Source: an uncultured Syntrophaceae bacterium
GTDB lineage: Bacteria > Desulfobacterota > BSN033 > UBA1163
Assembly (NCBI GenBank): GCA_964390545.1
Contig: CAYMJV010000003.1
Coordinates: 127-64,126, forward strand
Reading direction: 5' to 3'
DNA length: 64,000 bases
Part shown: positions 12,476 through 61,059 of the stretch, piece after piece
Layout of the letters: each line of letters opens with the position of its first letter
How positions within the stretch are numbered: the first letter of the stretch is position 1
Program-made: the position numbers and the translations under genes
The notes under the pieces: generated by a model
Told to the model about the DNA's origin: nothing
What the model saw: the letters and a program-made list of their open reading frames with translations, nothing else
Databases searched by the model: none

Positions 12476-12514
12476 AGGACAGGGGAAATCTCAAACCTAA
12501 TTTGGACAAGAGTG

Positions 12515-37951: not shown

Positions 37952-37963
37952 GAGGTGGGTTCA

Positions 37964-39127: not shown

Positions 39128-39215
39128 CAATCAATGGACGATGGAATGGTTTTTGGAAATCCCTTTCCGCAGGAATGTGATAAAGAGGAAGTGAGAAATC
39201 AGAAAGGAGGATGAC

Positions 39216-41612
39216 ATGACTCAAAGAACAAGAGACCTTATGCTAAGTACGCCTATTAAGTCAACTCAGATTGCTCAAAAATTTATTGCCGACGATATAA
39301 GGGCGAATAGACCAGGAATGAAGTGGGTCTATGAACTTGAGAGAGCGAGGTTGCTGACAGAATCCTATAAGCAGACTGAAGGGGAGCCTATGGTGCTAAG
39401 AAGGGCAAAGGCCTTAGCATACATTTTAGAGCATATGACGCTCTATATTCGCCCAGGTGAATTGATTGTTGGCTGCTTCGCCTCAGGGCCGGACTCTTGT
39501 GCCCACTATCCTGAGCTTCAATATAAATGGGTTGAAAGAGAGACAGGGTCCGGTATGGTTTATTCCGACTTGCTGAACGATGAGGAGAAGAAGGAACTTA
39601 AGGAAATAGACAGTTATTGGGAGAAGTATGCAGTCCATCACATTTTCAATAGATACCTTCCTGCAGATTTGCTTGATGTGACTTTTATGTTTGGCTTTGA
39701 GTATCAAACGCCAAACTACGAAAAGATTCTCCACAAAGGTTTAAAGGGGTTAATTGAAGAAGCTTTGAACAGGAAAGAGAGACTGGTAAAGGAATTGTGG
39801 GATCAAACTATATCCGAGGTAGAGTATGTGAAAAAAAAGGATTTCTTGGACTCCACGATCATCGTTTTGAATGCGGCAATTAACTGGGGGAAGAGATTTG
39901 CAAAATTAGCAAGGGAAATGTCTGAAAAAGAGAGAGACCCCAAGAGAAAAGGCGAATTGAGGATCATCGCAGAGAATTGTGAATGGGTGCCAAAGAATCC
40001 AGCACGCACACTCCGTGAGGCAATACAATGCTATTGGTTCATCCACCTTATTGTCAATTACATTGAGCTTCCTTGCGTGGGAGATGGGATAAGGTTTGAT
40101 GTTTGCATGAACCCCTTCTATGAGAAGGATTTAAAGGAGGGCAGAATAACCAGGGAAGATGCTCAAGAGCTGGTTGAGTGTGTATTTGTAAAATCTCAGG
40201 AAACAGGTTTCTTGCATCCACCCATATGGTCGGGTACAGGTGGAGGTGCCTTAGGGTTCCAAACGATGACCATTGGTGGAATGGATGCCAATGGTGACGA
40301 TGTTTCTGGTGAGATGAGCCTGATCGTTATGGATGCCATGAAAACCGTTAGAACGATAACTCCTCCGTTGGCTCTAAGATGGCACGACAAGATGCCAAAG
40401 AAACTGATTGACAAGAGCATCGAGTGCTGGGCCAGTGGCATGCCTCAGCCCGCCCTTTTCAATGATAAGGTAAACATCTTGAGATTGGCTGGTCTCGGGA
40501 TTCCTATTGAAGAAGCCAAAAATTATTCCATCTTGACTTGCATGATCCCGACCATACCGGGGAAAAACCTTACTCGGATTTCACCCACGTACATACCTGT
40601 TCCTTTATGTCTGACAGCGGCGTTAGGACTTGATGTATTGCCCGGTTTTTGGAAAAGACCGGTTGGAAATCCAGTCCCAGACCTGGAGAAAATTAGCTCG
40701 ATCGAACAGCTTATGGATGCCACGATAGAAAATTATAAGTGGATTATGCACGCGTGGGCTATTATGTCAAACATAGGTGAGGCTTTGTATCGAGAATATG
40801 TGCCCAGGCCATTCCTCTCAGCCTTACTGGACGATTCTATTGAGAAGGCCCAGGATTTCAGAGAATGGCAACATTGGCAAGGCTATCGAGAGGTCTATAT
40901 CATAGGTCTCAACAATCTTGCCGACTCCCTCGCTGCTATCAAGAAAGTCGTCTTTGAGAATAAGAAGGCTACCCTGTCTGAGCTCATCCAGGCCTTGAAG
41001 AAGAATTGGGAAGGTTATGAAGAGCTGAGGCAGATGTGCCTTGAGGCACCAAAATTTGGCAACGATGATGACTCTGTTGACCTCCTATCACGAGAGATGG
41101 GAAAAAGAATTGCCAAGGAGACGACGAAGTTTAAGACAATTTTCGGAAGTCACTACATTACGGATGGGACGGTAGCGTCAGCCTTTTACCTTCATGGGGC
41201 CACCTGCCCTGCTACGCCCGACGGAAGGAAGGCGAGAGAACCTTTCCATGATGGAAGTATTTCTCCTATGGGTAGCAGAGACCATAAGGGGCCGACAGCG
41301 GTGTTAAAGTCGGTTTCAAAGGTCGACCCATTGGTAACCTGGAATCACCTCTTTAACCAGACCTTCATGCCCCAGTATCTTGTAGGCCACAATGCGGAGC
41401 TCTTTGCTCAATACCTTGACACATGGAATGATTTAGGGATTCATCACATCCAATTCAGTGTCGTTAGCAGGGAAACTCTCATAGACGCCCAAAAACATCC
41501 TGAGAAATACAGCGACTTGATGGTCAGGGTCTGTGGCTACTCTGCTTACTTTGTGGACCTCAACAAAGGGCTGCAAGATCAGATTATTTCCAGGACCCCG
41601 CAATGTTTATGA
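39216..41612 (+). CDS. glycyl radical enzyme (PFL2 / 'dehydratase-type' architecture, unknown reaction)
   Basis: 798 aa with an AGGAGG RBS. ERARLLTESYKQTEGEPMVLRRAKAL, FGNDDDSVD, glycyl radical motif RVCGYSAYF (Gly774), and a predicted Cys loop YSILTCMIPTIPG (Cys442, codon 40539-40541). Confidence 0.9.
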   Translation: MTQRTRDLMLSTPIKSTQIAQKFIADDIRANRPGMKWVYELERARLLTESYKQTEGEPMVLRRAKALAYILEHMTLYIRPGELIVGCFASGPDSCAHYPELQYKWVERETGSGMVYSDLLNDEEKKELKEIDSYWEKYAVHHIFNRYLPADLLDVTFMFGFEYQTPNYEKILHKGLKGLIEEALNRKERLVKELWDQTISEVEYVKKKDFLDSTIIVLNAAINWGKRFAKLAREMSEKERDPKRKGELRIIAENCEWVPKNPARTLREAIQCYWFIHLIVNYIELPCVGDGIRFDVCMNPFYEKDLKEGRITREDAQELVECVFVKSQETGFLHPPIWSGTGGGALGFQTMTIGGMDANGDDVSGEMSLIVMDAMKTVRTITPPLALRWHDKMPKKLIDKSIECWASGMPQPALFNDKVNILRLAGLGIPIEEAKNYSILTCMIPTIPGKNLTRISPTYIPVPLCLTAALGLDVLPGFWKRPVGNPVPDLEKISSIEQLMDATIENYKWIMHAWAIMSNIGEALYREYVPRPFLSALLDDSIEKAQDFREWQHWQGYREVYIIGLNNLADSLAAIKKVVFENKKATLSELIQALKKNWEGYEELRQMCLEAPKFGNDDDSVDLLSREMGKRIAKETTKFKTIFGSHYITDGTVASAFYLHGATCPATPDGRKAREPFHDGSISPMGSRDHKGPTAVLKSVSKVDPLVTWNHLFNQTFMPQYLVGHNAELFAQYLDTWNDLGIHHIQFSVVSRETLIDAQKHPEKYSDLMVRVCGYSAYFVDLNKGLQDQIISRTPQCL

Positions 41613-41622
41613 CAAAGAGGAG

Positions 41623-42567
41623 ATGCATTACTGTTTGAATAAGCGAGAATCATTCTGGTGTAACGACTTGGACGGAATCGTATTTGATATTCAAAGGTAC
41701 AGTATCCATGACGGCCCTGGAATCAGAACAACGATCTTTCTGAAAGGGTGCCCGTTAAGATGTAAATGGTGTGCTAACCCAGAATCGCAGGATTTACGCA
41801 CTGAGATTTTCCTCAGGAAGTCCAAGTGTGATGGATGCGGGAAATGCGTAAAGACCTGTCCACCGGACGCTATTATTTTGAACAATGGGGGTATAGAGAT
41901 AGATAGGGGGCGCTGTGATCGGTGCATGAAGTGTGTGGATATTTGTCTCACACACGCCTTAAGCCGCGCAGGAGGTAGGAAGACCGTGCAAGAAGTTGTG
42001 GAAGAGGTTGGCAAAGATGAATTGTTTTACCGAAATTCAGGGGGTGGCGTAACCCTATCCGGTGGTGAGCCCCTTTTCCAGCCGGAATTTACTCTCGCTT
42101 TGTTGCAGGGATGTAAGAAGAGGTCGCTACATACTGCTTTAGACACGTGTGGTTTTGCCAAGTGGGAGATCTTGGATAAGATTTTAGATTACACGGACGT
42201 TGTCCTCTACGATATTAAACATTTAGATCCGATGCAACATGTTTCTGAAACGGGCGTCCGCAATGAGCTTATTATTGAAAATCTCGAGCGTACCGTTAGA
42301 AAAAAGAAAAGAATATGGATAAGAGTTCCCGTTATTCCTAACAGCAATGATTCAGAGCAGCACATGAGCAATTTGGCTAGATTTCTGTCAAGGATGTCTA
42401 TCGAAAAGGTTAGTCTCTTAGGTTACCACGAGTGGGGTCGAAGCAAGTATGAGGCCTTGGGCAGAAATTACCTGACGGACGAGTTATCCCCGTTGAAGGA
42501 GGAGGCGCTCAATCACTTGAAGGATATCCTGGAATCGTTTTCACTCAAGGTTTCTATTGGATATTAG
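41623..42567 (+). CDS. glycyl radical enzyme activating enzyme (radical SAM, ferredoxin-insert type)
   Basis: 314 aa from ATG 41623 (RBS AAGAGGAG). CPLRCKWCANP (CX3CX2C), CDGCGKCVKTCP and CDRCMKCVDIC clusters, and GGVTLSGGEP. Confidence 0.9.
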   Translation: MHYCLNKRESFWCNDLDGIVFDIQRYSIHDGPGIRTTIFLKGCPLRCKWCANPESQDLRTEIFLRKSKCDGCGKCVKTCPPDAIILNNGGIEIDRGRCDRCMKCVDICLTHALSRAGGRKTVQEVVEEVGKDELFYRNSGGGVTLSGGEPLFQPEFTLALLQGCKKRSLHTALDTCGFAKWEILDKILDYTDVVLYDIKHLDPMQHVSETGVRNELIIENLERTVRKKKRIWIRVPVIPNSNDSEQHMSNLARFLSRMSIEKVSLLGYHEWGRSKYEALGRNYLTDELSPLKEEALNHLKDILESFSLKVSIGY

Positions 42568-42634: not shown

Positions 42635-43405
42635 ATGGGAGTCAACAGTTCAATACTAAAGATAGAAAACATATCACTTGATTTCGGCTCGGTCCGGGCG
42701 CTGTTGGATGTGTCCTTCGAGGTTTACGGAGAGGAGATACTGGCTCTCATAGGGCCCAATGGTGCTGGAAAAACTTGCGTCTTAAACTGCATTAACGGTT
42801 TCTATTCTCCGAACAGAGGGAGGATCTTCTTGAGCGACCAGGAGATCACTCGCTTTTCGCCAAGCAAGCGGGCCAGGTTTGGAATATCGAGAACCTTTCA
42901 AAATATTGAGCTTTATACAGGCCTCACTGCTCTCGATAACCTGATGGCCGCCCGACATCATTACCTCAAATATGGTCCGATGGCCGGGTGTTTGTTTTTT
43001 GGGAGAGCCCGTCGCGAAGAAATTCGAAATCGCCATGTCGTGGAAGAAATTACTGATCTATTAGAGATAAGAGAGGTTCGCTATCAGGTGGTTGGAAGTC
43101 TCCCCTTTGGCCTCAGGAAACGAGTTGACCTTGGAAGGGCTCTGGCCCTTGAACCCAAAGTCCTATTGTTAGATGAACCCATGGCTGGTATGAACGTGGA
43201 AGAAAAAGAGGATATGGCCCGTTTTATACTCGATATTCAGGAACTAAGACATATTCCCATCGTTATTGTTGAGCATGACATGGGTGTTGTGATGGACATT
43301 GCCGACAGGGTCGTTGTGTTAGATTTTGGAAACAAGATTGCTGAAGGAATCCCCGCGGAAATCAAGAGGAATGAAAAAGTGATCCAGGCTTATCTGGGCA
43401 GATAA
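42635..43405 (+). CDS. branched-chain-amino-acid-type ABC transporter ATP-binding protein (LivG-like)
   Basis: 256 aa. Walker A GPNGAGKT and Walker B LLLDEPMAGMN. Confidence 0.9.
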   Translation: MGVNSSILKIENISLDFGSVRALLDVSFEVYGEEILALIGPNGAGKTCVLNCINGFYSPNRGRIFLSDQEITRFSPSKRARFGISRTFQNIELYTGLTALDNLMAARHHYLKYGPMAGCLFFGRARREEIRNRHVVEEITDLLEIREVRYQVVGSLPFGLRKRVDLGRALALEPKVLLLDEPMAGMNVEEKEDMARFILDIQELRHIPIVIVEHDMGVVMDIADRVVVLDFGNKIAEGIPAEIKRNEKVIQAYLGR

Positions 43406-43437
43406 TCGCCGGATACTTAGGGAGGGTCAAGGAAAAA

Positions 43438-45354
43438 GTGATCGATGCGCCGCATTTAGCAGAAAATGAAGACACACTTCCCAAGCTCCTTCTCAAAAAC
43501 TATCGCAAGCATGGTTCAAGCCAGGTGGCGATTCGTGAAAAGGATATGGGGATTTGGCAGAGTTATTCCTGGGCAGATTACTATGAGCTTGTCAAACATC
43601 TCTGTCTGGCATTTGTTTCTATGGGGCTCAAACCCGGTGAATGCGTGTCTGTCATTGCTGAAAATAAACCCCATGCTTACTGGTTTGAGTTGGCAGTGCA
43701 AGCGGCCGGAGGCGTGTTTGTCGGTGTTTTTGCTGACTGCACGCCCCCTGAGGTTGAGTATTTTGTGAATCAGTCGGAATCCCGTTTCATCGTGTGTCAA
43801 GACCAGGAACAGGTGGATAAGGTTCTTGTGATCAAGGAAAAGATACCGACGGTGCAAAAGGTGATCTATTGGGATCCGAAAGGTCTCTGGAGTTATTCTG
43901 ACCCCATTCTCATTAACATGGATCAGATGCTTGAGATGGGCAAAGCTGTGGAGAGAGATCGTCCTGGTTCATTCGAAGGCTGTGTTACGAAGACCAAGGG
44001 GGAGGACACGGCCGTCTTTTTCTACACTTCCGGAACAACGGGCCAACCGAAGGCGGCTGTGGTAAAGCACAAGGCTTTAATTGGTATGGCTAGGTCGTTC
44101 CATGCCGTAACCGCCTATAAGGAAAATGAGGACTATGTATCGTTTATGCCCCCGGCATGGAGCGCGGAGCAAGTATTCGGGGTGGCCTGCTCCCTGATCT
44201 TTTGTCTGCGAGCCAATTTCCCCGAGGAATCGGAAACAGTTCAGGAGAACATTCGCGAGATTGGGCCTCAAGTTGTCCTTTTCGGCCCACGCCTATGGGA
44301 GAATATTTTTCGAATGATTCAGGCTAAAATCGAGGCTTCATCATGGCTTAACCGCCTGTTTTATAGGGCCGCAGTAAGAATTGGTGAACGGATGGCCGAT
44401 TTCTCTATGTTCGGCAGGAAACCCGGCCCTTTGTTTTCTGTCCTCGGTTTTCTGGCTGATCTATCTGTTCTTAGACCTTTGCGCGACCGCCTTGGCTTAC
44501 GTAAGACCCGGATCGCTTTTACCGCAGGCTCGGCTGTAAGCCCGAGCCTGATTAAGTATTTTCATGCAATCGGCGTAAATATTAAACAGATGTACGGGGG
44601 CTCTGAGGTGGGAATAATAACCGGCCACCTGGATAAGAAGATTAAACCCGAGACATGCGGCCCTCCATTACCCCAGGTTGATATCAAGCTTTCTGACGAG
44701 GGGGAGATCATGGTGTCCACCCCCAACATGTTTTCGGGTTATTTCAAGGATGAGCAGAAATCAGCACAACAGGTAAAGGACGGCTGGTATTATACCGGGG
44801 ACTTTGGCTATTTGGACAAGGACGGTCACCTTGTTGTTATGGACCGGATGACGGACCTATCGAACTTAGCTGGAGGGCAGCGGTTTTCTCCCCAGTACTG
44901 CGAGACCCAGCTTCGCTTCTCTGTATCTATCAAAGATGCGATGGTTTTGGCACGAGAGACTGAGACCCTCATCGGGGCGCTGGTCAATATTGATCTGGAC
45001 ACCGTAAGTCAGTGGGCCGAATCGAAGCACATCCCTTATACCACATTCGCTGACCTCTCTCAGAAACCAGAGGTCATAGAACTGATTCGAAAGGAGATAT
45101 CAAGAATCAATGAAAAACTCCCAGAGTTTTCCCGTATCAGAAAATTTATCAATCTCCACAAGGAGTTTGATCCGGACGAGGGGGAGATGACGCGTACACG
45201 AAAGATTCGGCGGACTTTAGCAGAAGAACGCTTCAAGGAGATGATTGACGCTATTTTCGGCGAAAAAGAGCAATTAGAGGTTATGACACAGATCACCTAT
45301 CGGGACGGCCGGACTGGTACGACCAAGATTAGGGTCACAGTAAACACCGTCTAG
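43438..45354 (+). CDS. long-chain-type AMP-dependent acyl-CoA synthetase embedded in the ABC operon
   Basis: 638 aa. FFYTSGTTGQPKAAVVKH, YGGSEVG, and WYYTGDFGYLDKDGHLVVMDRMTD. Confidence 0.9.
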   Translation: MIDAPHLAENEDTLPKLLLKNYRKHGSSQVAIREKDMGIWQSYSWADYYELVKHLCLAFVSMGLKPGECVSVIAENKPHAYWFELAVQAAGGVFVGVFADCTPPEVEYFVNQSESRFIVCQDQEQVDKVLVIKEKIPTVQKVIYWDPKGLWSYSDPILINMDQMLEMGKAVERDRPGSFEGCVTKTKGEDTAVFFYTSGTTGQPKAAVVKHKALIGMARSFHAVTAYKENEDYVSFMPPAWSAEQVFGVACSLIFCLRANFPEESETVQENIREIGPQVVLFGPRLWENIFRMIQAKIEASSWLNRLFYRAAVRIGERMADFSMFGRKPGPLFSVLGFLADLSVLRPLRDRLGLRKTRIAFTAGSAVSPSLIKYFHAIGVNIKQMYGGSEVGIITGHLDKKIKPETCGPPLPQVDIKLSDEGEIMVSTPNMFSGYFKDEQKSAQQVKDGWYYTGDFGYLDKDGHLVVMDRMTDLSNLAGGQRFSPQYCETQLRFSVSIKDAMVLARETETLIGALVNIDLDTVSQWAESKHIPYTTFADLSQKPEVIELIRKEISRINEKLPEFSRIRKFINLHKEFDPDEGEMTRTRKIRRTLAEERFKEMIDAIFGEKEQLEVMTQITYRDGRTGTTKIRVTVNTV

Positions 45355-45366
45355 GGAAAGGGCAGT

Positions 45367-46242
45367 ATGCTTACTCTGCAATTTTTCACAACAGGTCTTC
45401 TGGTTGGGGGCATTTATGCCCTCATCGCTGTGGGCATTGTCCTTGTTTATAAAGCCACGCGGATCTTTAACTTTGCTGTGGGAGAGCTGTTGGCTCTTGG
45501 GGGCTTCTTCTGTTACACGTTTTTTGTCTTGTTCCATTTTCCTTTATGGCTGTCTGCCCTTGGGACTCTTATCATGGCGGTTATCACTGGGTCTCTGGTG
45601 GAACGGCTGGTCCTCCGGCCTTTGCTAAGTCAATCGATTCTAACCATTATCATGGCCACTCTTGCTTTATCCTGCATTTTAAGAGGCCTGATGCTTATGC
45701 TCTGGACCGGTTATTCCCTATCGTTTCCAGAGCCGCTGCTACCTCGAAAGCCTTTTATTGTGAGGGATATCGTTATGCCCCAAGAGATGATGTGGGGTTT
45801 TATCATAGCGATGATAGCGTTTATTGTCTTGGCCTACTTCTTCCTCAAAACAAGAACCGGATTGAGAATGCGAAGCGTCTCCGAGGACCATGAACTTTCT
45901 ATGGCCTGCGGGGTGAATATCACTCGCATTTTTGCTTTGACCTGGATTTTTGCCGCAGTTCTGGGCGCCCTGGGAGGCGTCCTGCTAGGCAATCGGATTG
46001 GCTTATCAGCCGTTCTTACGCCTCCGATTGCACTCAAGGCCTTTCCCGCTGTCCTCTTCGGTGGTGTGGAATCAATTTCAGGAGCTATTGTAGCCGGGCT
46101 CATCACCGGCATCATAGAAAACCTCGTGGGAGGATTGATTGATCCAAGCCTGGGAGAGATCTCACCCTATGTGATCCTTCTGCTGGTTCTTATCTTAAGG
46201 CCGACAGGCCTGTTTGGATTAAAGCGTGTGGAGAGGATCTAA
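45367..46242 (+). CDS. ABC transporter permease (LivH-like)
   Basis: 291 aa, multi-TM. N-terminus QFFTTGLLVGGIYALIAVGIVLVY is typical of LivH. Confidence 0.9.
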   Translation: MLTLQFFTTGLLVGGIYALIAVGIVLVYKATRIFNFAVGELLALGGFFCYTFFVLFHFPLWLSALGTLIMAVITGSLVERLVLRPLLSQSILTIIMATLALSCILRGLMLMLWTGYSLSFPEPLLPRKPFIVRDIVMPQEMMWGFIIAMIAFIVLAYFFLKTRTGLRMRSVSEDHELSMACGVNITRIFALTWIFAAVLGALGGVLLGNRIGLSAVLTPPIALKAFPAVLFGGVESISGAIVAGLITGIIENLVGGLIDPSLGEISPYVILLLVLILRPTGLFGLKRVERI

Positions 46243-46244
46243 CC

Positions 46245-47309
46245 ATGTGGCGACCTTGCGGAACCTTTGATGATACCTATGAAAAGAATATCAGCATTGT
46301 CAGGACTCCTGCCCAGTGGATCATTACGATCGCTAGCTTAGTTGCTTTGGCACTGGTACCGGAATTTGCAAGTGGCAGGGTTATCGTTACGGTCAATCTG
46401 ATAGGCATTTCCATCATCAGTGCTCAAGGGCTCAATGTGCTCACGGGTATGACCGGGCAGATCTCCTTGGGACAGGCAGCCTTTATGGGAGTTGGAGCAT
46501 TTACCCAGATGATGTTGATGAACCACTTGGGGTTTCCTTTCTGGCTTGCCCTTCCTTTTGCAATGTTCTTCACTGGCCTCATGGGTGTTTTCTTTGGCCT
46601 CCCCTCCCTCCGCATCAAGGGCTTTTACCTGGCTATGGCCACCCTGGCCGCTCAGTTTCTTGTCCCTTGGATGATCATACATATCCGGCCCGACATCACC
46701 GGCGGCACCAACACAATTACCATAAAACCTGCCAGCTTGCTCGGCCTCTCTCTTTCTTCCCAGTCAAGGGTATATTATGTGATCATGTTTTTCACTGTGG
46801 TTGTTATCTATTTGGTGCGCAACTTGGCCAGATGCAAAATCGGGCGCGCCTTTATAGCCATTCGAGATAACGATCTCGCGGCTGAGGTCATGGGCTTGGA
46901 AATTTTTCGGTACAAACTCCTCTCCTTTTTTATCTGCTCGCTTTTGGCTGGCTTGGCCGGGGGGCTTTGGACGATTTGGATGGGTTCGGTTAATGTAGAC
47001 ATCTTTACGCTGGAGGAGTCTGTCTGGTATCTGGGCATGATCATTGTGGGAGGACTGGGTTCTGTACCCGGGGCTGTATTTGGTGTCATCTTTATCAGGT
47101 TATTATATCTTTTTATCATTATTTGGGCACCGACGGTCAGCGGTTTTTTCCCAACTGTCTTTGCGGCTTCCGTAGAAAAGGGATTGCATCCCTTGCTCTT
47201 TGGCCTGATCATCCTGCTGTTTCTCATTTACGAGCCGCGCGGCATGAGCCATCGGTGGGAGATTATCAAAAACTGGTACAGGAGTTGGCCTTTTTCTCCT
47301 GGGGTGTGA
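46245..47309 (+). CDS. ABC transporter permease (LivM-like)
   Basis: 354 aa, multi-TM. GLNVLTGMTGQISLGQAAFMGVGAF. Confidence 0.9.
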   Translation: MWRPCGTFDDTYEKNISIVRTPAQWIITIASLVALALVPEFASGRVIVTVNLIGISIISAQGLNVLTGMTGQISLGQAAFMGVGAFTQMMLMNHLGFPFWLALPFAMFFTGLMGVFFGLPSLRIKGFYLAMATLAAQFLVPWMIIHIRPDITGGTNTITIKPASLLGLSLSSQSRVYYVIMFFTVVVIYLVRNLARCKIGRAFIAIRDNDLAAEVMGLEIFRYKLLSFFICSLLAGLAGGLWTIWMGSVNVDIFTLEESVWYLGMIIVGGLGSVPGAVFGVIFIRLLYLFIIIWAPTVSGFFPTVFAASVEKGLHPLLFGLIILLFLIYEPRGMSHRWEIIKNWYRSWPFSPGV

Positions 47310-47497
47310 AAACTTAATGGTCAGCTTGATTGTCGAGCTGAATGAGAGGCCGTGGGTCAATGAGCATTGATCAGAAAGCTCATCAAAGAAAGGGGGTGCC
47401 TCACAAAGCGTCGTTGGCTAAGCAGGTACGGGTGAATCCAAGAGGTTTCGTTATCATCTTAATCTTGGGAAATTAGCTTTTAGTAAAGGAGGGTCAA

Positions 47498-48739
47498 ATG
47501 AGGAATCAAAGCAATAGGTGGTTGAAGAGGATTGTGGCTATCTCGATATCCGTCAGCTTAGGGCTGATCCTTGGATTCTCTTCCGAGTGTCCAGCCCAAA
47601 AACCTGAAGTTCTCAATTTTCCTATGATTGGCGCCATTTCCGGGCCCTACATCCAAATCGTAGGCCCCGCCGTGCCGGCCCTTGAGGATGCCTGTAGTTA
47701 TGTGAATACTGAACTTGGAGGTGTCCACGGGGTAAAAATCAATCCCGTCATTCGGGATATGGGTGGTGTTGTGGCTACAGGAGTACAACAGTATGAGGAA
47801 ATCATTCGCTTGAAACCCAAGCCTTATTTTGTTTATTCGGTCTTTTCTCCATTGGCCGAGGCGATCAGGGATAAATTTGTAACCGATAACGTGATCGGTT
47901 TGGTCGGCGGTACTTTCGGTAGCGTTTATCCCTTGGGCAACGCGTATTCCATGTATGCTTTATATGTCAACATGACGGCTGCAGGATTGAAGTACTTCAA
48001 GGACAACTTCAAAGAACAGCGCAACGTTCGGGCGGCTATCGTTACTTGGGACACATCTTATGGACGGTGCATCCTGGTGCCAGAGTTTGACGATTACTGC
48101 AAGAAAATCGGAGTGGACATTGTAGCCAAGGAGCTGTTTGGCATGCGGGACATAGATCTTACCACCCAAATGGTTCGCATCAGGGCAAAAAATCCAGATC
48201 TCTTGATTACTGCAAGTACAGGCCAAGGCCCTATCTCCATTATGAAGGCTGCGAAGGAGCTGGGCATGGATATCAAGTTATTAAACAGTGAGGGCGGCGA
48301 TTGGGGAACGGTGCGACTCAATCCAGAACTATTCGAGGGGTGCATTGTCGTTGTGCATTGTCAATCTTACGATGATGTGAATCACCCTGGGATGCAGAAG
48401 GTGCTCTCCTACATGAGGAAAAATAAACGTACCGAGGCAGAACAAACGGCTCTGGCTATATCCTCTTGGCAGAACATTCTGTTGTTCCATAAAATAATGA
48501 CAGATGCTGTCAACAAGGTTGGCTGGGATAAACTGGATTTTCAAGTTCTTAAAAAAGAGCTTAATCAGCTTACCAACTGGGAACCCCTTAATGGGATTGT
48601 TAAAATTACATACAGAGAAAAGCAGCGGTTTCCCTTAACGGGAGGCATCATGAAGGTTCAAAAGGGTAAGTTCGTCAATGTAGTCGGTTCCGGAGTCCTT
48701 GTTGACCTCCCGGATCTTACACCGGCCGAATATCGTTAA
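47498..48739 (+). CDS. periplasmic substrate-binding protein (type 1 PBP, Leu/Ile/Val-binding family)
   Basis: 413 aa with an AAGGAGG RBS and a signal peptide. Position within the liv-type operon supports the call. Confidence 0.8.
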   Translation: MRNQSNRWLKRIVAISISVSLGLILGFSSECPAQKPEVLNFPMIGAISGPYIQIVGPAVPALEDACSYVNTELGGVHGVKINPVIRDMGGVVATGVQQYEEIIRLKPKPYFVYSVFSPLAEAIRDKFVTDNVIGLVGGTFGSVYPLGNAYSMYALYVNMTAAGLKYFKDNFKEQRNVRAAIVTWDTSYGRCILVPEFDDYCKKIGVDIVAKELFGMRDIDLTTQMVRIRAKNPDLLITASTGQGPISIMKAAKELGMDIKLLNSEGGDWGTVRLNPELFEGCIVVVHCQSYDDVNHPGMQKVLSYMRKNKRTEAEQTALAISSWQNILLFHKIMTDAVNKVGWDKLDFQVLKKELNQLTNWEPLNGIVKITYREKQRFPLTGGIMKVQKGKFVNVVGSGVLVDLPDLTPAEYR

Positions 48740-48868
48740 TCTCCAGACGGAGGCTTTTTAGGACTGTATGACATGTTTGCAACAATGAGGCGGGGTAGGC
48801 CAAGAGGGAAGTGGCGCTTCGTTGCAACCATCAATGCTACGAGAACGTCATTGTAAAGACATCAAGGC

Positions 48869-48905
48869 GACGAGGCGATCTCACCCAAAATGGGATTGCT
48901 TCGTC
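48869..48905 (+). repeat. strand-specific 12-bp hairpin (REP-like)
   Basis: GACGAGGCGATC / GATTGCTTCGTC pair with two G-U wobbles on the + transcript. On the minus strand these would be A-C mismatches. Confidence 0.45.
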
Positions 48906-49000
48906 CACCTTGAAGAATTCAAGATATTTGGGGCAAGAATTTTGAGGAGGTTTGCATCTACAAAAGGAACATCGTTTCAATCCAGACACTAATTTAGGGG

Positions 49001-49804
49001 GTGAGTGCTATCTTAGAGGTTAATCAAATAGAGGTATTTTATCATAATGTGATTCAGGTTCTGAAAGGAGTCTATCTGCAGGTGAAAGAGAAGCAGATAG
49101 TTTCTTTGTTAGGAGCCAACGGCGCAGGGAAAACCACCACCCTAAAGGCAATATCCGGCCTTCTCAAGGGCCAGGCAGGTCAAGTGACCGATGGCTATAT
49201 AACCTTTTTAGGTGAGAGGATTGAGGATAAATTGCCTTATGAAATTGCAAGGATGGGTATAATCCAGGTGCTTGAAGGAAGGCGGCTATTTGGTCATCTC
49301 ACCGTGGAGGAAAACATGCGTGTGGGGTTTTTAGGGAGTGGAGGTGAGAGAGAACTCCAGAAGGGTCTTGAAAGGGTCTATAGTCTCTTCCCTCCGCTAC
49401 TTCGTATGAGAGATCGCACAAGCGGTTTTCTATCTGGAGGAGAGCTCCAGATGCTCTCTATTGGAAGGGCTCTCTTGTCAAATCCCAAAATAATGCTTCT
49501 GGATGAACCTTCACTTGGCCTTGCACCTCTTGTCATGCAAGCCATCTTTCAAAATATCAAGCAGATGAATGAAGAGAGAAACATAACCATACTGCTTGTG
49601 GAACAAAATGCTTTGGCGGCTCTACAAATCGCGAGTTATTCCTACGTAATGGAAAACGGCCGTATCGTGATGGATGGGCCAGCTGAGAAGCTCAAGGAAA
49701 ATGAAGACATCAAGGAGTTCTATCTAGGCCTGAGTAAAATTGGAACTCGCAAGAGCTATAAGGACGTAAAGCATTACAAAAGGCGGAAACGCTGGCTGTC
49801 GTAA
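49001..49804 (+). CDS. ABC transporter ATP-binding protein (LivF-like)
   Basis: 267 aa with a GTG start. GANGAGKTT, LSGGELQML, and MLLDEPSLGLAP. Confidence 0.9.
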   Translation: MSAILEVNQIEVFYHNVIQVLKGVYLQVKEKQIVSLLGANGAGKTTTLKAISGLLKGQAGQVTDGYITFLGERIEDKLPYEIARMGIIQVLEGRRLFGHLTVEENMRVGFLGSGGERELQKGLERVYSLFPPLLRMRDRTSGFLSGGELQMLSIGRALLSNPKIMLLDEPSLGLAPLVMQAIFQNIKQMNEERNITILLVEQNALAALQIASYSYVMENGRIVMDGPAEKLKENEDIKEFYLGLSKIGTRKSYKDVKHYKRRKRWLS

Positions 49805-49924: not shown

Positions 49925-50803
49925 ATGAAAATTAAGAAGATATTTGTAGTGGGAGCTGGCTTAATGGGAAGTGGAATAACACAAGTTTGCGGCCAGGCGG
50001 GGTATTCGGTAGTCATGGAGGATGTGACAGATACCGCTGTAAAAAAAGGGCTCGATGCCATTCGATGGTCGGTGAACAAGTTTGTTGAAAAAGGAAAAGT
50101 GAAGGGTACGGTCGATGAGGTTATGGGAAGGATTGCAACCAGCACGGATATGGCTGACGCAAAGGACGCGGACTTTGTATTCGAGGCCGTGTTTGAAGAC
50201 CTTAAGGTCAAACATGAAGTGTTTTCAAAGTTGGATGAAATCTGTCCATCCCATACTATCCTGGCTACGAATACCTCAGCGATTCCCATAACCGAAATAG
50301 CCGCAGCCACAAAACGAGCGGAAAGGGTGATAGGAACGCATTTCTTCAGTCCTGTGCCCATGATGCCTGTAGTGGAGGTCATCCGTGGCTTATGTACATC
50401 TGATGAGACAATGCAAGCGACCAAGGAGCTGTGTCAATCCATTGGCAGAGAGCCTATCACCTGCAATAAGGATGTGGCAGGTTTTCTTTTTAGCAGGCTC
50501 AATGCAGCTGGCAATATTGAAATCATAAAACTGGTAGAGCAGGGAGTCGGTACCGTTGAGGAGATTGACAAAGGGGTAAGGTTAGGACTCGGGAGAGCGA
50601 TGGGGCCATTTGAAACGGGTGATCTTACGGGCTTAGATGTATCTTTGAACGCTTACATGAACATTTACAACGAGACCAAGGATCCAAAGTTCTTTCCACC
50701 GATGCTGTTGAGGAGAAAGGTTAAGGCTGGGCATCTGGGGAAAAAGGTGGGAATAGGGTGGTATCGGTATGATGATAAAGGAAATCGTATTGGGCCGGCA
50801 TAG
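49925..50803 (+). CDS. 3-hydroxyacyl-CoA dehydrogenase (Hbd type)
   Basis: 292 aa. Rossmann motif KIFVVGAGLMGSGITQ, plus HFFSPVPMMPVVEVI. Confidence 0.9.
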   Translation: MKIKKIFVVGAGLMGSGITQVCGQAGYSVVMEDVTDTAVKKGLDAIRWSVNKFVEKGKVKGTVDEVMGRIATSTDMADAKDADFVFEAVFEDLKVKHEVFSKLDEICPSHTILATNTSAIPITEIAAATKRAERVIGTHFFSPVPMMPVVEVIRGLCTSDETMQATKELCQSIGREPITCNKDVAGFLFSRLNAAGNIEIIKLVEQGVGTVEEIDKGVRLGLGRAMGPFETGDLTGLDVSLNAYMNIYNETKDPKFFPPMLLRRKVKAGHLGKKVGIGWYRYDDKGNRIGPA

Positions 50804-50821
50804 GAAGGGGGAGGAAGTGCT

Positions 50822-51601
50822 GTGGGAGAACCGGTAACGTATCGATTGAGTAGTGGGATTGCAGTGGTAACGATCGACAATCCACCGATGAATGCTTTAA
50901 GCGGACAGGTAAAGAATGTTTTAGAAACTGTGTTTGAAGAACTCAATGCCAGGATAGAAGAGGTCAAAGTGGTGATCCTCACTGGAGCTGGGGGGAAGGC
51001 GTTTGTTGCAGGTGCAGATATCAAGGAGCTTCCAGGTCTCAATCCAGAGAAGGCAAGAGTGAGATTCAGGAGATCGCGCCAACTTTTTTTGAACATAGAG
51101 AGATTTGATAGACCTGTGATCTGTGCGATAGATGGACTCTGTCTTGGTGGGGGTTTAGAGTTGGCGATGTGCTGTGATATTCGAATTGCAACAGAAAAGT
51201 CTACAATCGGACAGCCCGAAATAAATCTAGGGATTCTACCAGGTGGGGGTGGAACTCAGCGTCTTCCGAGGCTGGTGGGAATGGGTATTGCGAAGGAACT
51301 CATCTTTACAGGTAGATTGATCACGGCAAAAGAGGCTAATAATATTGGCTTGATTAATCTCGTGGTCCCTTCGGGGGAGCATATGATTAAGGCTGAGGAA
51401 ATAGCTCAAGTTCTTTGTGAAAAAGCCCCCCTGGCCCTTAGAGCTGCAAAGGAGGTTATAGGGAGAGGGATGAATATGACCCTGGATAATGGATTGATCC
51501 TTGAGGCAGACTTGGGGAGTTTCCTGTACGGAACTGAGGATCAGAAAGAAGGGGCACTTGCGTTTCTCGAAAAAAGGAAACCTGGCTTTAAAGGAAAATG
51601 A
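50822..51601 (+). CDS. enoyl-CoA hydratase/isomerase (crotonase)
   Basis: 259 aa. VVILTGAGGKAFVAGADIKEL, DGLCLGGGLELAMCCDIRIA, and GQPEINLGILPGGGGTQRL. Confidence 0.9.
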   Translation: MGEPVTYRLSSGIAVVTIDNPPMNALSGQVKNVLETVFEELNARIEEVKVVILTGAGGKAFVAGADIKELPGLNPEKARVRFRRSRQLFLNIERFDRPVICAIDGLCLGGGLELAMCCDIRIATEKSTIGQPEINLGILPGGGGTQRLPRLVGMGIAKELIFTGRLITAKEANNIGLINLVVPSGEHMIKAEEIAQVLCEKAPLALRAAKEVIGRGMNMTLDNGLILEADLGSFLYGTEDQKEGALAFLEKRKPGFKGK

Positions 51602-51743
51602 CTAAACTACTTCATGTACACGCATGCGTCAGATCCAGTTGGATCCCAATAGGTAAAGGGTCTGATGGTTTAAGGTCCATCTAAAGACTAATGAAGCACT
51701 CTCTATTCTGGCACACCGGAGCGGTCAAAAGACCGATCATGAT

Positions 51744-52223
51744 ATGAGCCAGGAAGAGGAGAAGATTTTGAGCAGTAGCCGGAAAAGAATTCCTGTGCAA
51801 GAAGGATTCTGGGCAGAGCCATCAAGCCCTGGTGAGCGGCCACAATTACTTGGGCACAAGTGCCGTGACTGCGGTGAAATCTTCTTTCCCAGAAGGAATA
51901 ACGGAATCTGCACACATTGCCAGTCGAGGAACCTAGTGGAGATGAAACTTAGTTCAAAAGGCAAAATCTATAACTACACCATCGTGGAGCAAAAACCACC
52001 TGCCTACTATAAGGGTGAGGTTCCATACGCTTTAGGGTTCATTGAGCTGCCGGAGGGTGTGAGATTGAGATCTCTTTTCACAGGATGCAACCTGAATGAC
52101 CTCAAGGTAGGGATGGAAGTAGAGATCGTGATCGAAAGGTTGTTTGAAAATGACGAGGGCGACGAAATTATCACTTACAAATTCAGACCTATACATGCAT
52201 CTTTAGAAGGTAAGAACCAATGA
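51744..52223 (+). CDS. DUF35 OB-fold/zinc-ribbon protein (BbsA-like thiolase partner)
   Basis: 159 aa. CRDCGEIFFPRRNNGICTHCQS followed by an OB-fold segment. The stop overlaps the next start (ATGA). Confidence 0.85.
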   Translation: MSQEEEKILSSSRKRIPVQEGFWAEPSSPGERPQLLGHKCRDCGEIFFPRRNNGICTHCQSRNLVEMKLSSKGKIYNYTIVEQKPPAYYKGEVPYALGFIELPEGVRLRSLFTGCNLNDLKVGMEVEIVIERLFENDEGDEIITYKFRPIHASLEGKNQ

Positions 52224-53365
52224 GGGATGTGGCAATTGCCGGTGTTGGTCTATGCCGGTTTGATCTTTATGATGGATTGAAGGGGCGTCCTGAAAAACAG
52301 TATTATGAACTGGGAGGTGAGGCAATCCTCAACGCTTTAGATGATGCTGACATGGACTGGAAGCAAATTCAGGCGGTATTTAACGGCAATGTCAATGGTG
52401 GATCTGCCACCGGACACATGGCAACTAAGAGAATTGGGATGACGGGAATACCCATTGTCAATGTAGAAAATGCCTGCTCCAGTGGGCAGTCAGCTCTTCG
52501 ACTTGCTTATCTCATGATTGCTCACGGAGTTTATGATGTAGTTCTTGCGAGTGGTGTTGAAAAGGTGCCTAAGGGTCTTTTGCCATCTGAGGGGTGGAAC
52601 ATTTGGGAAAAATTAATGGGATTCAATGTGATGCCCGCCATGTATGCTCTTGAAACCGTAAGGTACATGGAGGATACAGGAGCTACAATAGAAGATTTCG
52701 CCAGAGTAACAGTGAAAAACCGAAAAAACGGGGTACTCAACCCGTATGCGCGATTTCAGCAACCTGTCACTATTGAAGAAGTTCTTTCGTCACGTATGAT
52801 TGCAAAACCTCTTCGCTTCTTGAATGCCTGTCCCCTTGGCGATGGAGCGGCTGCCGTTATTCTTTGTAGTAAAGATAAATTAAAGTCAAAAGAAAAAATT
52901 GTGACGGTGGCTGTAGCAGTTTTGGCCAGCGGGACATACGGACATGACTACGGATTTGCTAGCGTTAGGATTCCGCCTACAAACATCATAGAATTTTCTG
53001 CAAAGCAGGCTTACGAGTTATCAGGCATAGGGCCGGATGACATAGATGTAGTTCAAGCCTATGATGCGATGTCCTCAGGAGAGCTTTGGGATATAGAGGA
53101 GTTAGGTTTCTGTAAAAGGGGAGAGGCTTTTCGCTTGCTGAGGGAGGGAACATTTGACCTGGGGGGAAGGCTCCCCGTAAATACGGACGGAGGACTGATG
53201 GCGAGAAGCCATCCCGCGGGCGCTACCGGTCTGGCTCAAGTCATAGAAATTCACAGGCAAATTCGTGGAGAGGCAGGAGCTAGGCAAGTTCCCGGGGCCA
53301 AAGTTGGCTTGGCACATTCAATGGGTATCGGCCTCAATAGTTCCATCACCATATTGAAGCGATAG
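52220..53365 (+). CDS. SCP-x/thiolase-like protein (BbsB-like)
   Basis: 381 aa. VENACSSGQSALRLAY and NTDGGLMARSHPAGATG. Confidence 0.85.
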   Translation: MRDVAIAGVGLCRFDLYDGLKGRPEKQYYELGGEAILNALDDADMDWKQIQAVFNGNVNGGSATGHMATKRIGMTGIPIVNVENACSSGQSALRLAYLMIAHGVYDVVLASGVEKVPKGLLPSEGWNIWEKLMGFNVMPAMYALETVRYMEDTGATIEDFARVTVKNRKNGVLNPYARFQQPVTIEEVLSSRMIAKPLRFLNACPLGDGAAAVILCSKDKLKSKEKIVTVAVAVLASGTYGHDYGFASVRIPPTNIIEFSAKQAYELSGIGPDDIDVVQAYDAMSSGELWDIEELGFCKRGEAFRLLREGTFDLGGRLPVNTDGGLMARSHPAGATGLAQVIEIHRQIRGEAGARQVPGAKVGLAHSMGIGLNSSITILKR

Positions 53366-53435
53366 TGTCTTTTCGGGGTTTGGTTGCTATGTTGAAGGCT
53401 TTCTTCTCCTATTCGATTAAGGAGGTTATTTCGCT

Positions 53436-54212
53436 ATGCCTGAGACGCTAACCTTCGAGAAAAAAGATCGTATCGCATACCTTACTTTGAACAGACCAGA
53501 GCAGAGAAACGCACTTACCATCGAAATGTGGAACATGCTGGAGAAGTATTGGGATAAAGTAAATGAGGACGATGACGTGAGAGCGGTCATCGTTACAGGC
53601 GCAGGGGATAAGGCGTTTTGTGCTGGTATGGATCTTAAAGAAGTTGAGCGGTTGCGTAAGGAAGGAAAAGATAATGTTCTCAAATTGGTCGATGATCCGT
53701 TCATGCAGAAGATGCGAAAGGTGAATAAGCCTATCGTTGCGGCCATCAATGGCAGTGTCTTTGCTGGCGGGTTTTTGATTGCGTTGAATTCGGATATTAG
53801 AGTCTGTATTCGGGACACCACTTTTGCGATTACGGAAGCAAAGGTTGGTAGAGGGTCTCCGTGGGCAATGCCCCTTCTATGGATGCTCCCTTTGGGTATC
53901 ATCATGGAGTTGACTTTGACCGGGGAAGCTATTTCCGCTGAGAGGATGTATCAAATGGGGTTTATTAACCGATTAGTTGGAAGAGAAGAGTTGATGCCCA
54001 CAGCGATTGGTATAGCAGAAAGCATAAGGGACAATGCGCCTCTCTCCGTTAGGGCGGCAAAGGAGTCTCTCCTGAGGGGCATGGATTTAGGACTCAAGGC
54101 TGGGTTTGAAAAGGCTATGGAGATTTATCAATCCGTCTACGAAAGTGAGGATGCACAGGAAGGCCCCAGGGCATTTGCAGAAAAGAGAAAGCCTAAATGG
54201 AAGGGCCGTTAA
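53436..54212 (+). CDS. enoyl-CoA hydratase/isomerase family protein
   Basis: 258 aa with an AAGGAGG RBS. AVIVTGAGDKAFCAGMDLKE and AAINGSVFAGGFLIALNSDIRV. Confidence 0.9.
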   Translation: MPETLTFEKKDRIAYLTLNRPEQRNALTIEMWNMLEKYWDKVNEDDDVRAVIVTGAGDKAFCAGMDLKEVERLRKEGKDNVLKLVDDPFMQKMRKVNKPIVAAINGSVFAGGFLIALNSDIRVCIRDTTFAITEAKVGRGSPWAMPLLWMLPLGIIMELTLTGEAISAERMYQMGFINRLVGREELMPTAIGIAESIRDNAPLSVRAAKESLLRGMDLGLKAGFEKAMEIYQSVYESEDAQEGPRAFAEKRKPKWKGR

Positions 54213-54463
54213 CCTTTCCTGTATTTTCCATCCATTTCTGAGCAATGGCCTGTCTAAACAAATCGTTAGATCACAAGAGCGTTAATCTAAAGATTCTAAT
54301 CGAGGCAAAGAGGCGAGTTCCGATTCACTAAAAAAGAGGTCGGATGAAGAGACAAGAGCTGCTAAGCGTCCTATGCAGCATGTAAGCCCAAAAATGAAAT
54401 TAAAGACCTTTAAAAGATGGACCCCTCAGGAAAAATCTGGTTACAAAAATAGAGGAGAGAAGA

Positions 54464-61058: not shown

Positions 61059-61059
61059 T

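Follow-up and report, generated by a model that had tools for sequence, protein, structure and literature searches.

A Glu-less glycyl radical enzyme with an X-succinate-synthase-like cysteine loop among CoA-ester genes of an uncultured Syntrophaceae bacterium

The characterised pyruvate formate-lyase (PFL)-like glycyl radical enzymes (GREs) account for five chemistries, and the residues around the catalytic cysteine distinguish the classes: eliminases and isomerases carry C-x-E, formate lyases a Cys-Cys pair, 4-hydroxyphenylacetate decarboxylase (HPAD) and indoleacetate decarboxylase (IAD) a loop glutamate (E505 and E502, respectively), while Gln484 and Trp495 are essential in phenylacetate decarboxylase (PAD) (PMC13450708). 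In the X-succinate synthases (XSS), represented here by benzylsuccinate synthase (BSS) and by MasD of (1-methylalkyl)succinate synthase (MASS), fumarate is contacted by the Cys loop, Arg508 (Arg492 in MASS), Gln707 (Glu690 in MASS), and Trp613/Asn615 with Tyr197/Ser199 (PMC12358834, PMC4848970). The loop backbone forms an oxyanion hole for one fumarate carboxylate, and the arginine, situated on strand β6, forms a salt bridge with the second (PMC12358834). None of the classes in a GRE review of 2026 has a C-M-[VI]-P loop, and whole clades as well as all archaeal GREs are described there as uncharacterised (PMC13450708). Such a loop is found in a GRE encoded on a 64,000-nucleotide stretch of DNA from an uncultured Syntrophaceae bacterium (positions 127 to 64,126 of contig CAYMJV010000003.1, assembly GCA_964390545.1), which is referred to as the window. 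Judged from its sequence, this enzyme belongs to a GRE clade that is related to the XSS yet free of accessory subunits, and which presents itself as a variant within the known GRE superfamily.

The cysteine loop and the predicted radical relay

Region 39216–42567 is predicted to encode an intact GRE together with a dedicated activase, and the parts of the radical relay (activase, Gly774 and Cys442) appear complete (Table 1). The GRE contains the PFL-like domain PF02901 (E 2e-161) and the Gly_radical domain PF01228 (E 8e-28), and its translation carries the glycyl radical motif RVCGYSAYF with Gly774 exactly as read in an earlier note on this DNA. In phmmer, profile hidden Markov model (HMM) and MAFFT alignments, Cys442 lies opposite the catalytic loop cysteine of the choline trimethylamine-lyase CutC (C489), glycerol dehydratase (GD; C433), BSS (C493) and MasD (C477). 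Since the phmmer alignment places N-Y-S-I-L-T-C-M-I-P-T-I-P-G without gaps on D-Y-C-L-M-G-C-V-E-P-Q-K-S-G of CutC and on D-Y-G-I-I-G-C-V-E-P-Q-K-P-G of GD, Cys442 can be assigned as the catalytic cysteine, with Ile444 in place of the C-x-E glutamate. The thiyl residue proposed in the earlier note is thus retained, and a different loop cysteine within a standard GCVE or Cys-Cys motif is excluded by the alignments.

The corresponding loops in the PDB sequences are N-V-L-C-M-S-P-G in BSS (4PKC) and H-M-A-C-M-S-P-N in MasD (9O8U). As both read C-M-S-P, C-M-x-P can be regarded as the XSS-type loop, and the C-M-I-P of the window protein appears to be of this type, with Ile replacing Ser and without a catalytic Glu. 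Its description as non-canonical therefore holds with respect to the C-x-E enzymes and PFL, but the XSS loop provides a precedent. T-C-M-I-P is unique to the window protein; the loop is T-C-M-V-P and S-C-M-I-P in the two proteins closest to it, and N-N-C-M-V-P in 111 of 120 homologues. Residues C442, M443, P445, G449 and K450 are invariant across these homologues, and at position 444 they all have Val or Ile and in no case Glu. Together with its two nearest relatives, the window protein makes up a small subclade with the loop I-L-[TS]-C-M-[IV]-P, in which two residues (A-W) following Ser456 are lost.

The C-x-E motif is absent from the window GRE (C442-M-I444), as are the Cys-Cys pair (T441-C442) and the decarboxylase signature, as +2 is neither Glu nor Gln and +13 is not Trp. 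Every NCBIfam equivalog falls below its cut-off, including the eliminase models HpsG (480, cut-off 1000), HypD (451, cut-off 1100), CutC (431, cut-off 1050) and PRK09983 (409, cut-off 1109), the PFL model TIGR01255 (120, cut-off 994) and the models of IAD (369, cut-off 1100) and HPAD (272, cut-off 1150); the subfamily model PFL2-3 reaches 519 with a cut-off of 678. Because the catalytic Glu and the Cys-Cys pair are both missing, eliminase, isomerase, decarboxylase and PFL chemistries are unlikely, which agrees with the earlier note, where the loop was taken to argue against PFL chemistry and Glu-assisted elimination.

Automatic annotation would nonetheless make the protein a formate C-acetyltransferase, a glycerol/diol dehydratase or a choline trimethylamine-lyase. 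The database names of its homologues are of this kind (formate C-acetyltransferase, choline trimethylamine-lyase, PFL/glycerol dehydratase family), and its best PDB matches are glycerol and diol dehydratases (E 1e-130). The glycerol/1,2-propanediol dehydratases (PDB 1R8W, 5I2A) yield the top raw scores, 437 and 434 bits, with 34.6% identity to GD, and the C-x-E enzymes in general (GD, propanediol dehydratase, CutC, HypD, IslA, HpsG, YbiW/PflD, HplG) share length class, single-subunit architecture and kind of activase with the window GRE. However, G-C-V-E is replaced by T-C-M-I, and the substrate residues of GD are not conserved: His164, His281 and Ser282 align to Tyr163, Cys287 and Val288, and Asp447 aligns to Ile455 in the HMM alignment or to Thr458 in the MAFFT alignment. 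With equivalog scores far below the cut-offs and a 99% bootstrap split from the C-x-E enzymes, the annotated functions are scarcely credible and effectively refuted at the sequence level. A ranking by raw similarity, which places the dehydratases first, was rejected as a guide to function, their catalytic residues not being conserved.

Very improbable, too, is a decarboxylase of the HPAD, PAD or IAD kind, which would turn an imported organic acid into a hydrocarbon. Genes for acid uptake are adjacent, the family-invariant Arg558 and His/Arg454 are potential anchors for a carboxylate, and PAD is likewise without a loop Glu, its essential Gln484 suggesting a C-x-Q loop (PMC13450708). The family is, however, unrelated to the decarboxylase clades, as reflected by the low IAD and HPAD scores, a γ subunit as found in HPAD is missing, and release of a hydrocarbon would make little sense within a catabolic CoA operon. 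A PAD-type assignment was discarded, as the Q(+2)/W(+13) signature sits in another, unrelated clade (P0195).

The start codon of the activase gene (ATG at 41623) is found 10 nt past the stop codon of the GRE gene (TGA, 41610–41612). Its product displays CX3CX2C at residues 43–50 and ferredoxin-like CX2CX2CX3C motifs at residues 69–79 and 98–108, and, together with the TIGR02494 score (Table 1), these motifs bear out the ferredoxin-insert radical S-adenosylmethionine (SAM) activase described in the earlier note. The top NCBIfam matches are the activase models of HypD, HpsG and CutC, all below cut-off. In nearly all loci of the family the activase adjoins the GRE. On the upstream side, a gap of 88 nt separates the GRE start from the stop of a thiolase gene (39127), with an AGGAGG ribosome-binding site in the gap, and a terminator scan detected no terminator-like site in either intergenic gap flanking the GRE, so that the close linkage noticed before is corroborated. 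Small-subunit candidates, that is open reading frames (ORFs) of at least 30 aa adjoining the GRE, are absent, which together with the comparison of family loci described below supports the earlier observation that β/γ genes are not adjacent.

Relation to the X-succinate synthases and spread of the family

An HMMER scan of 1.84 billion representatives returned 1,776 GREs at E<=1e-30, among which the closest 50%-clusters are further Glu-less enzymes with the loops S-N-C-M-W-P, N-H-C-M-Q-P, G-C-V-x-W and G-C-V-Y-L. In neighbour-joining (NJ) trees (distance-based, unrooted, 100 bootstraps), support was 100 for the family, 99 for the family with its C-M-W-P and C-M-Q-P sisters, and 89 for the Glu-less superclade. 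The split that separates the superclade and the XSS-like sequences, including BSS and MasD, from the C-x-E enzymes received 99, and a single clade of the family and the XSS-like sequences was recovered in 0 of 100 bootstraps. In these trees the window protein thus stands on the side of the XSS, but apparently outside them. The Glu-less sister clades, which are known from metagenomes (loops S-N-C-M-W-P, N-H-C-M-Q-P, x-C-M-R-W, N-N-C-M-S-W, G-C-V-Y-L-D) and are all uncharacterised, resemble it in their identity (38–52%), in P-G-K after the loop, D-G-[ST] at positions 650–652, Arg at column 455 and frequent CoA-ester gene neighbours; they differ in the loop residues at +2 and +3, and several occur as arrays of tandem paralogues. 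An AlphaFold2 model of the window GRE (pLDDT 86.7, pTM 0.90) is closest to MasD (TM-score 0.91, by a small margin; XSS 0.89–0.91), but since all solved GREs give TM-scores of 0.85–0.91, the fold comparison cannot assign the class.

Tandem arrangements were also seen at loci of the family itself. In two of them (L002, 14137–22403; L003, 7634–12800) a family GRE with the loop D-S-C-M-I-P is followed by tandem GRE paralogues of 827–828 aa (Q-S-C-M-A-P), three in L002 and two in L003; these arrays are without an adjacent activase, the closest gene for a radical-SAM enzyme being 4 kb upstream. A Chloroflexia metagenome-assembled genome (L028, 9875–20685) contains four tandem G-C-V-Y-L-D paralogues and one activase; these GREs do not belong to the family but to another uncharacterised Glu-less clade within the superclade.

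Arg508 of BSS corresponds to family column 455, both when bridging sequences were included in a MAFFT L-INS-i alignment and in an independent family-HMM alignment; these were used here, as MAFFT --auto placed the residue opposite an Ala of the family, and MasD is ambiguous in this segment. Column 455 is occupied by Ile in the window protein and in 77 of the 120 homologues, and by Arg in 39, among them all Asgard types, several bacterial members and the relative with 88% identity (K-R); nearly all sister clades have Arg as well. Gln707 of BSS aligns to the family-invariant Thr652 within a D-G-T motif, the P-N-G-W-H-N motif is absent with Asn615 aligning to the family-invariant Arg558, and Ser495 is replaced by Ile or Val. 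The window GRE is furthermore 50–80 residues shorter than the XSS (BSS α subunit, PDB 4PKF/5BWE; MasD, PDB 9O8U), lacks the N-terminal extension, and β, γ and δ subunit genes were found at none of the 17 family loci compared. Features in common with the XSS are the C-M-x-P loop without Glu, the side of the tree, the ferredoxin-insert activase, an acidic residue at the column of BSS Glu189 (conserved Glu162) and the Arg508-column Arg kept in a third of the family.

As Arg508, Gln707, Trp613/Asn615, the accessory subunits and the tree placement all fail, membership in the XSS is not supported at the sequence level. A Glu-less, carboxylate-anchoring active site of common ancestry with the XSS is plausible, given that one third of the family members and almost every sister clade have Arg at column 455 and that Glu162 matches Glu189. 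Arg at this column appears to be ancestral in the superclade.

It is improbable that the enzyme is a genuine fumarate-adding XSS which forms alkyl-, terpenyl- or arylsuccinates with no need of accessory subunits, as has been suggested for 'Ass/Bss' homologues of Hermodarchaeota, and whose substituted succinate is degraded by a bbs-like set in the window (family III CoA-transferases, acyl-CoA dehydrogenase, hydratases, dehydrogenase, and DUF35 with thiolase). In addition to loop, tree side and the Arg of the Asgard-type and several bacterial members and of the 88% relative, such an enzyme would be in line with the five family III CoA-transferases and two DUF35/SCP-x thiolase pairs encoded in the window, as well as with its acyl-CoA dehydrogenases and hydratases. 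This contrasts with Ile455 in the window protein, with the missing equivalents of Gln707/Glu690 and Trp613/Asn615, and with the failure of the family to fall inside the XSS clade in any of the 100 bootstraps. Genes for β/γ subunits were present at none of the family loci compared, although the bss locus of Desulfobacula (L056), used as control, shows Cys-rich ORFs of 58 and 68 aa flanking bssA.

Asgard GREs have already been linked to the XSS: Zhang et al. 2021 (ISME J) termed GREs of Hermodarchaeota 'alkyl/benzyl-succinate synthases' relying on modelling, on 29–33% identity to AssA/BssA and on their single Cys (PMC8163825). These proteins resemble the present family, which includes Hermod-, Hod-, Thor-, Loki-, Jord- and Promethearchaeota, in that they have one loop Cys, are about 30% identical to AssA/BssA and are encoded next to an activase of the ferredoxin-insert type. 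However, the published text has Gly before the Cys, where the family has Asn, and the published proteins could not be confirmed as family members; their assignment rests on BLAST similarity and modelling alone (PMC8163825). Identities of about 30% to AssA/BssA do not discriminate, since members of the present family are 32–33% identical to BSS and MasD but 35–37% identical to GD, and identity at this level is typical of any GRE. The annotation as alkyl- or benzylsuccinate synthase calls for caution, since the family matches the XSS in its loop but deviates from them in most of the other hallmarks.

A further lead from the XSS field, limonenylsuccinate synthase, was followed due to AtuA in the window and its connection to terpene metabolism, and was dropped: the enzyme is 61% identical to BssA, possesses β/γ subunits and is a bona fide XSS that lies outside the present clade (PMC12583861).

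A search of 5.8 billion proteins detected one identical protein, of JGI metagenome origin, along with more than 120 clusters (90% identity level) that are 56–88% identical to the window GRE. Named members belong to Lokiarchaeia, Hermod-, Jord- and Promethearchaeota, Chloroflexi, Smithellaceae and Thermodesulfobacteriota, and a GTDB scan (best match 64% identical) added Hod- and Thorarchaeota, Dehalococcoidales, Desulfobacteraceae and NPL-UPA2. By sequence, the window GRE thus represents one coherent and widespread family of Asgard archaea, Chloroflexota/Dehalococcoidia, Desulfobacterota and others and not a singleton. No family member carries a specific functional name, the names in use being only the generic ones mentioned above, and a literature search gave no predictions for the clade based on sequence similarity networks. 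The window GRE offers a concrete entry point into this large (at least 120 clusters at 90% identity) and broad clade, which includes several Asgard phyla and which has already been invoked, on weak evidence, to prove hydrocarbon degradation by Asgard archaea.

Gene context and proposed chemistry

In the window, the GRE gene shares its strand with closely spaced genes for CoA-ester enzymes and uptake systems that surround it, as had been noticed earlier and as follows from the Pfam and NCBIfam matches of its neighbours and the terminator scan. Read against the established Atu/Liu pathways, these genes suggest removal of β-methyl branches, β-oxidation and uptake of acids. The order biotin carboxylase, HMG-CoA-synthase-like protein, thiolase, GRE, activase, ABC genes and ligase is common only to the window and the 88% relative (L001). 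The grouping of the GRE with CoA-ester enzymes proposed in the earlier note is therefore correct for the window, but the carboxylase/HMG-CoA-synthase-like/thiolase context recurs only in this relative, and because no other locus shares that order, the operon context cannot define the function of the family. In a relative with 66% identity (L007), GRE and activase are accompanied by two thiolase genes and a DUF35 gene following the GRE, and by genes for a binding protein, a nitronate monooxygenase (NMO), ABC proteins, a ligase and a reductase of the old yellow enzyme (OYE) type.

Other partners recur more widely. A FabK-like NMO is encoded near the GRE at eight family loci (seven besides the window) of the main bacterial group, which comprises Chloroflexi, Dehalococcoidales and Thermodesulfobacteriota, and OYE/FadH-like reductases, enoyl-CoA hydratases, SCP2 proteins and iron-dependent alcohol dehydrogenases are likewise recurrent in this group. 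A fusion flavoprotein with CrtI-like and PaaE-like parts is found near family GREs in four lineages. In L004 (17520–20171) and L008 (16887–19535) this fusion of a CrtI/carotenoid-isomerase-family part with a PaaE-like ferredoxin reductase is 883 aa long, with homologues in L015 and L017, and it is accompanied by two SCP2 proteins in L004/L005 and L008. The recurrence of FabK-like, OYE/FadH-like, CrtI-like, SCP2 and hydratase partners suggests unsaturated or isoprenoid lipid-like substrates, and hydrophobic, unsaturated or branched acyl or isoprenoid compounds may be the common thread of the neighbourhoods. At the Asgard loci, conservation is limited to the activase and a DsbH-like gene; the latter (Thioredox_DsbH-like, about 690 aa, 57–60% identity between loci) stands beside the GRE–activase pair, upstream of the GRE, at all five Asgard loci (L006, L010, L011, L013, L014). 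CoA-ester genes lie within 10 kb at 20 of 33 superclade loci and at 7 of 41 other GRE loci (Fisher p = 2e-4), an enrichment which is confounded by taxonomy and for which window proteins served as probes.

This enrichment is the only backing for the idea, raised in the earlier note, that a CoA thioester itself is the radical substrate. Here an acyl-CoA thioester, or an acid bound alike, would undergo for example C–C cleavage, C–C formation or rearrangement on a branched acyl-CoA in an Atu/Liu-like pathway. The position of the GRE between thiolase and acyl-CoA ligase/ABC module, kept in the 88% relative and partly in the 66% relative, the CoA-ester genes around the whole Glu-less superclade and the replacement of the fumarate-anchoring Arg by Ile fit such a role, and PFL illustrates that a GRE can admit the thiol of CoA (PMC13450708). 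However, an acyl-CoA as radical substrate is without precedent among GREs, the Asgard members are without CoA-ester neighbours, and a gene neighbourhood indicates a pathway rather than a step, which leaves this explanation with a low probability.

The flavoproteins near family members could also be taken to indicate a radical isomerase that works without co-substrate. By abstraction of an allylic hydrogen and its return elsewhere, or by reversible addition and elimination, such an enzyme would shift or flip double bonds of isoprenoid or polyene acids for subsequent hydratases and reductases. A loop without acid/base residue, the lack of a conserved dicarboxylate anchor in the window protein, AtuA in the window, and the CrtI-like proteins of the carotenoid isomerase/desaturase family, FabK-like proteins, OYE-like ene-reductases, SCP2 proteins and hydratases of the family loci would be compatible with this activity. 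All known GRE isomerases, in contrast, keep C-x-E and cleave C–O or C–N bonds (PMC13450708), and enoyl-CoA isomerases normally do such work without radicals. The proposal rests purely on inference and must be rated as quite improbable.

Since the catalytic Glu is missing, pure hydrogen-atom-transfer chemistry as in the XSS is the most likely mode of action. The tentatively preferred, though far from certain, assignment deduced from the sequence is a Glu-independent hydrogen-atom abstraction that leads to an XSS-like hydroalkylation or an isomerisation of a branched or unsaturated isoprenoid-like substrate, which feeds into the surrounding CoA pathway. In its favour are the C-M-x-P loop and its conservation in 120 homologues, the position in the NJ trees, Arg at column 455 in many relatives, the CoA-ester genes of the window and of the superclade loci, and the recurrent partners at other family loci. 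In this scheme the activase would install a radical on Gly774, which would generate a thiyl radical on Cys442. The thiyl radical would take a hydrogen atom from a weak C–H bond, be it allylic, tertiary or α to a carboxyl group, in an isoprenoid-like substrate that is hydrophobic and either methyl-branched or unsaturated, and the resulting carbon radical would either add to an olefinic acid in a fumarate-type hydroalkylation or be re-quenched at another position in an isomerisation, whereupon the product radical would regain hydrogen from Cys442. The product could then pass through CoA transfer or ligation, an acyl-CoA dehydrogenase and Atu/Liu-like γ-carboxylation of β-methyl branches, and subsequently through cleavage by the HMG-CoA-synthase-like protein and thiolase and β-oxidation by the DUF35/SCP-x thiolases. 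With Ile455 in place of the fumarate-anchoring Arg and with the family-invariant Arg558, classical fumarate binding of the toluene/alkane type is not expected to be conserved; probably the anchor for acceptor or substrate differs from that of BSS and MASS.

Several observations weigh against hydroalkylation or isomerisation of this kind. The fumarate-anchoring Arg is not found in the window protein, where the Arg508 column holds Ile455, and none of the motifs that surround Trp613/Asn615, Gln707 and Arg382/Glu383 in the XSS is present. BSS and MASS require β/γ subunits for solubility and turnover (PMC13450708), but an all-against-all comparison of small ORFs in 17 family loci (the window and 16 others) revealed no conserved small ORF, only antisense shadows of the activase gene. 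By raw score the best solved relatives are diol dehydratases (437 bits vs 354–358 bits for XSS), and the placement on the XSS side relies on distance-based, unrooted trees. Concerning the pathway, a B12 mutase (methylmalonyl-CoA-mutase-like, as in the alkylsuccinate pathway) is absent among all 54 genes of the window, the ABC importer and the acyl-CoA ligase just downstream point to an acid instead of a hydrocarbon as substrate, the Asgard members lack CoA-ester neighbours, and the enrichment of such genes is subject to the confounding mentioned above.

A narrower version of the proposal, in which a subunit-free GRE applies the XSS-like, acid/base-free thiyl mechanism to an acyl-CoA or an isoprenoid acid instead of hydrocarbon plus fumarate, is rather unlikely but would have considerable consequences. 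The enzyme would be either the first GRE for which a CoA thioester serves as radical substrate or the first hydroalkylase or isomerase that stands alone, and would provide a function for the Asgard/Chloroflexota/Desulfobacterota clade and a new anaerobic route for branched and isoprenoid lipids in sediments. A subunit-free hydroalkylase would also matter for biocatalysis, because accessory subunits and insoluble α subunits are the main practical obstacle with the XSS. The remaining probability falls to something not considered here. The window operon is unusually informative; the ligand of its binding protein could reveal the substrate.

Features of the window and further observations

The coordinates of the GRE–activase pair and of its surroundings are given in Table 1. 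All but one of the approximately 54 window genes are located on the + strand, and the GC skew is positive throughout. In total, the window contains five family III CoA-transferase genes and two DUF35/SCP-x thiolase pairs; a FabK-like NMO, the four further family III CoA-transferases and 2-hydroxyacyl-CoA-dehydratase-like genes lie further upstream.

Table 1. Positions of the GRE gene, its sequence motifs and neighbouring genes in the 64,000-nucleotide window.
Feature	Position	Strand	Basis and remarks
TetR-family regulator	26344..26979	+	Pfam TetR_N; precedes the gene run; possible operon regulator
Family III CoA-transferase	27058-28167	+	Pfam, NCBIfam
Acyl-CoA dehydrogenase	28256-29404	+	Pfam, NCBIfam
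AtuA	29655-31034	+	Pfam, NCBIfam
AtuA ferredoxin-like protein	31036-31356	+	Pfam, NCBIfam
Two carboxyltransferase paralogues	31488-33068, 33164-34735	+	Pfam, NCBIfam; biotin carboxylase system
Biotin carboxyl carrier protein (BCCP)	34740-35087	+	Pfam, NCBIfam
Biotin carboxylase	35094-36473	+	Pfam, NCBIfam
Archaeal-type HMG-CoA-synthase-like/DUF35(OB) fusion	36536-37951	+	PRK04262 228 bits, under cut-off 244; C-terminal DUF35/OB (ChsH2_C)
SCP-x-type thiolase	37955-39127	+	Pfam, NCBIfam; directly upstream of GRE
AGGAGG ribosome-binding site	39205..39210	+	Read from sequence; 5 nt before GRE ATG
GRE catalytic subunit, 798 aa	39216..41612	+	ORF and translation; PFL-like and Gly_radical Pfam domains
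Cys loop T441-C442-M443-I444-P445	40536..40550	+	Cys442 codon 40539-40541; aligned to CutC/GD GCVEP, BSS LCMSP, MasD ACMSP
Arg454-Ile455	40575..40580	+	Codons read; residue 455 aligns with the fumarate anchor Arg508 of BSS and with GD Asp447
Glycyl radical motif R-V-C-G774-Y-S-A-Y-F	41526..41552	+	Gly774 codon 41535-41537; Gly invariant in family
GRE-activating radical-SAM enzyme, 314 aa	41623..42567	+	TIGR02494 373 bits (cut-off 174); Pfam Radical_SAM, Fer4_12, Fer4
Liv-type ABC uptake system (ATPases, two permeases)	42635..49804	+	Pfam
Acyl-CoA ligase, 638 aa	43438-45354	+	Pfam; embedded in Liv-type ABC system
Peripla_BP_6 binding protein	47498-48739	+	Pfam; part of Liv-type ABC system
Beta-oxidation set: 3-hydroxyacyl-CoA dehydrogenase, enoyl-CoA hydratase, two further enoyl-CoA hydratases	49925..55267	+	Pfam
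DUF35	51744-52223	+	Pfam; within beta-oxidation set
SCP-x thiolase	52220-53365	+	Pfam; pairs with DUF35 51744-52223

The HMG-CoA-synthase-like/DUF35 fusion together with the SCP-x thiolase upstream of the GRE represents a bacterial counterpart, in fused form, of the archaeal thiolase/HMGCS/DUF35 complex. Two pairs of HGD-D genes (2-hydroxyacyl-CoA-dehydratase- or benzoyl-CoA-reductase-like) are located at 12359–15128 and 59979–62280 (+ strand); two family III CoA-transferase genes come after the first pair, and an activator ATPase for these pairs is not visible in the window.

Close to the start of the window, two tandem small ORFs of 42 and 46 aa (871–999 and 1093–1233, + strand) match the desulforedoxin-type domain (PF06397, C-x2-C...C-C); both are situated within a 748-nt gap that precedes a TetR gene. 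They were weighed as analogues of small subunits, namely as rubredoxins like MASS δ, and rejected, being 38 kb away from the GRE and not conserved with the family.

Two gene fragments were noticed. An ORF of 146 aa at 25503–25943 (+ strand), followed by a non-coding gap of 400 nt, matches only positions 78–220 of ATP-grasp_5 and is probably the truncated remnant of a gene for an ADP-forming acyl-CoA synthetase. At 62466–62984 (+ strand), a C-terminal fragment of an acyl-CoA dehydrogenase overlaps the 3′ end of an amidohydrolase gene (62790–63770, − strand), the sole minus-strand gene of the window.

At one further family locus (L092), a protein of 931 aa with HMG-CoA reductase and squalene-hopene-cyclase-like domains is encoded divergently from the family GRE (5400–8195, − strand), where it adjoins UbiA, carotenoid-synthase-like and FMN-dehydrogenase-like genes.

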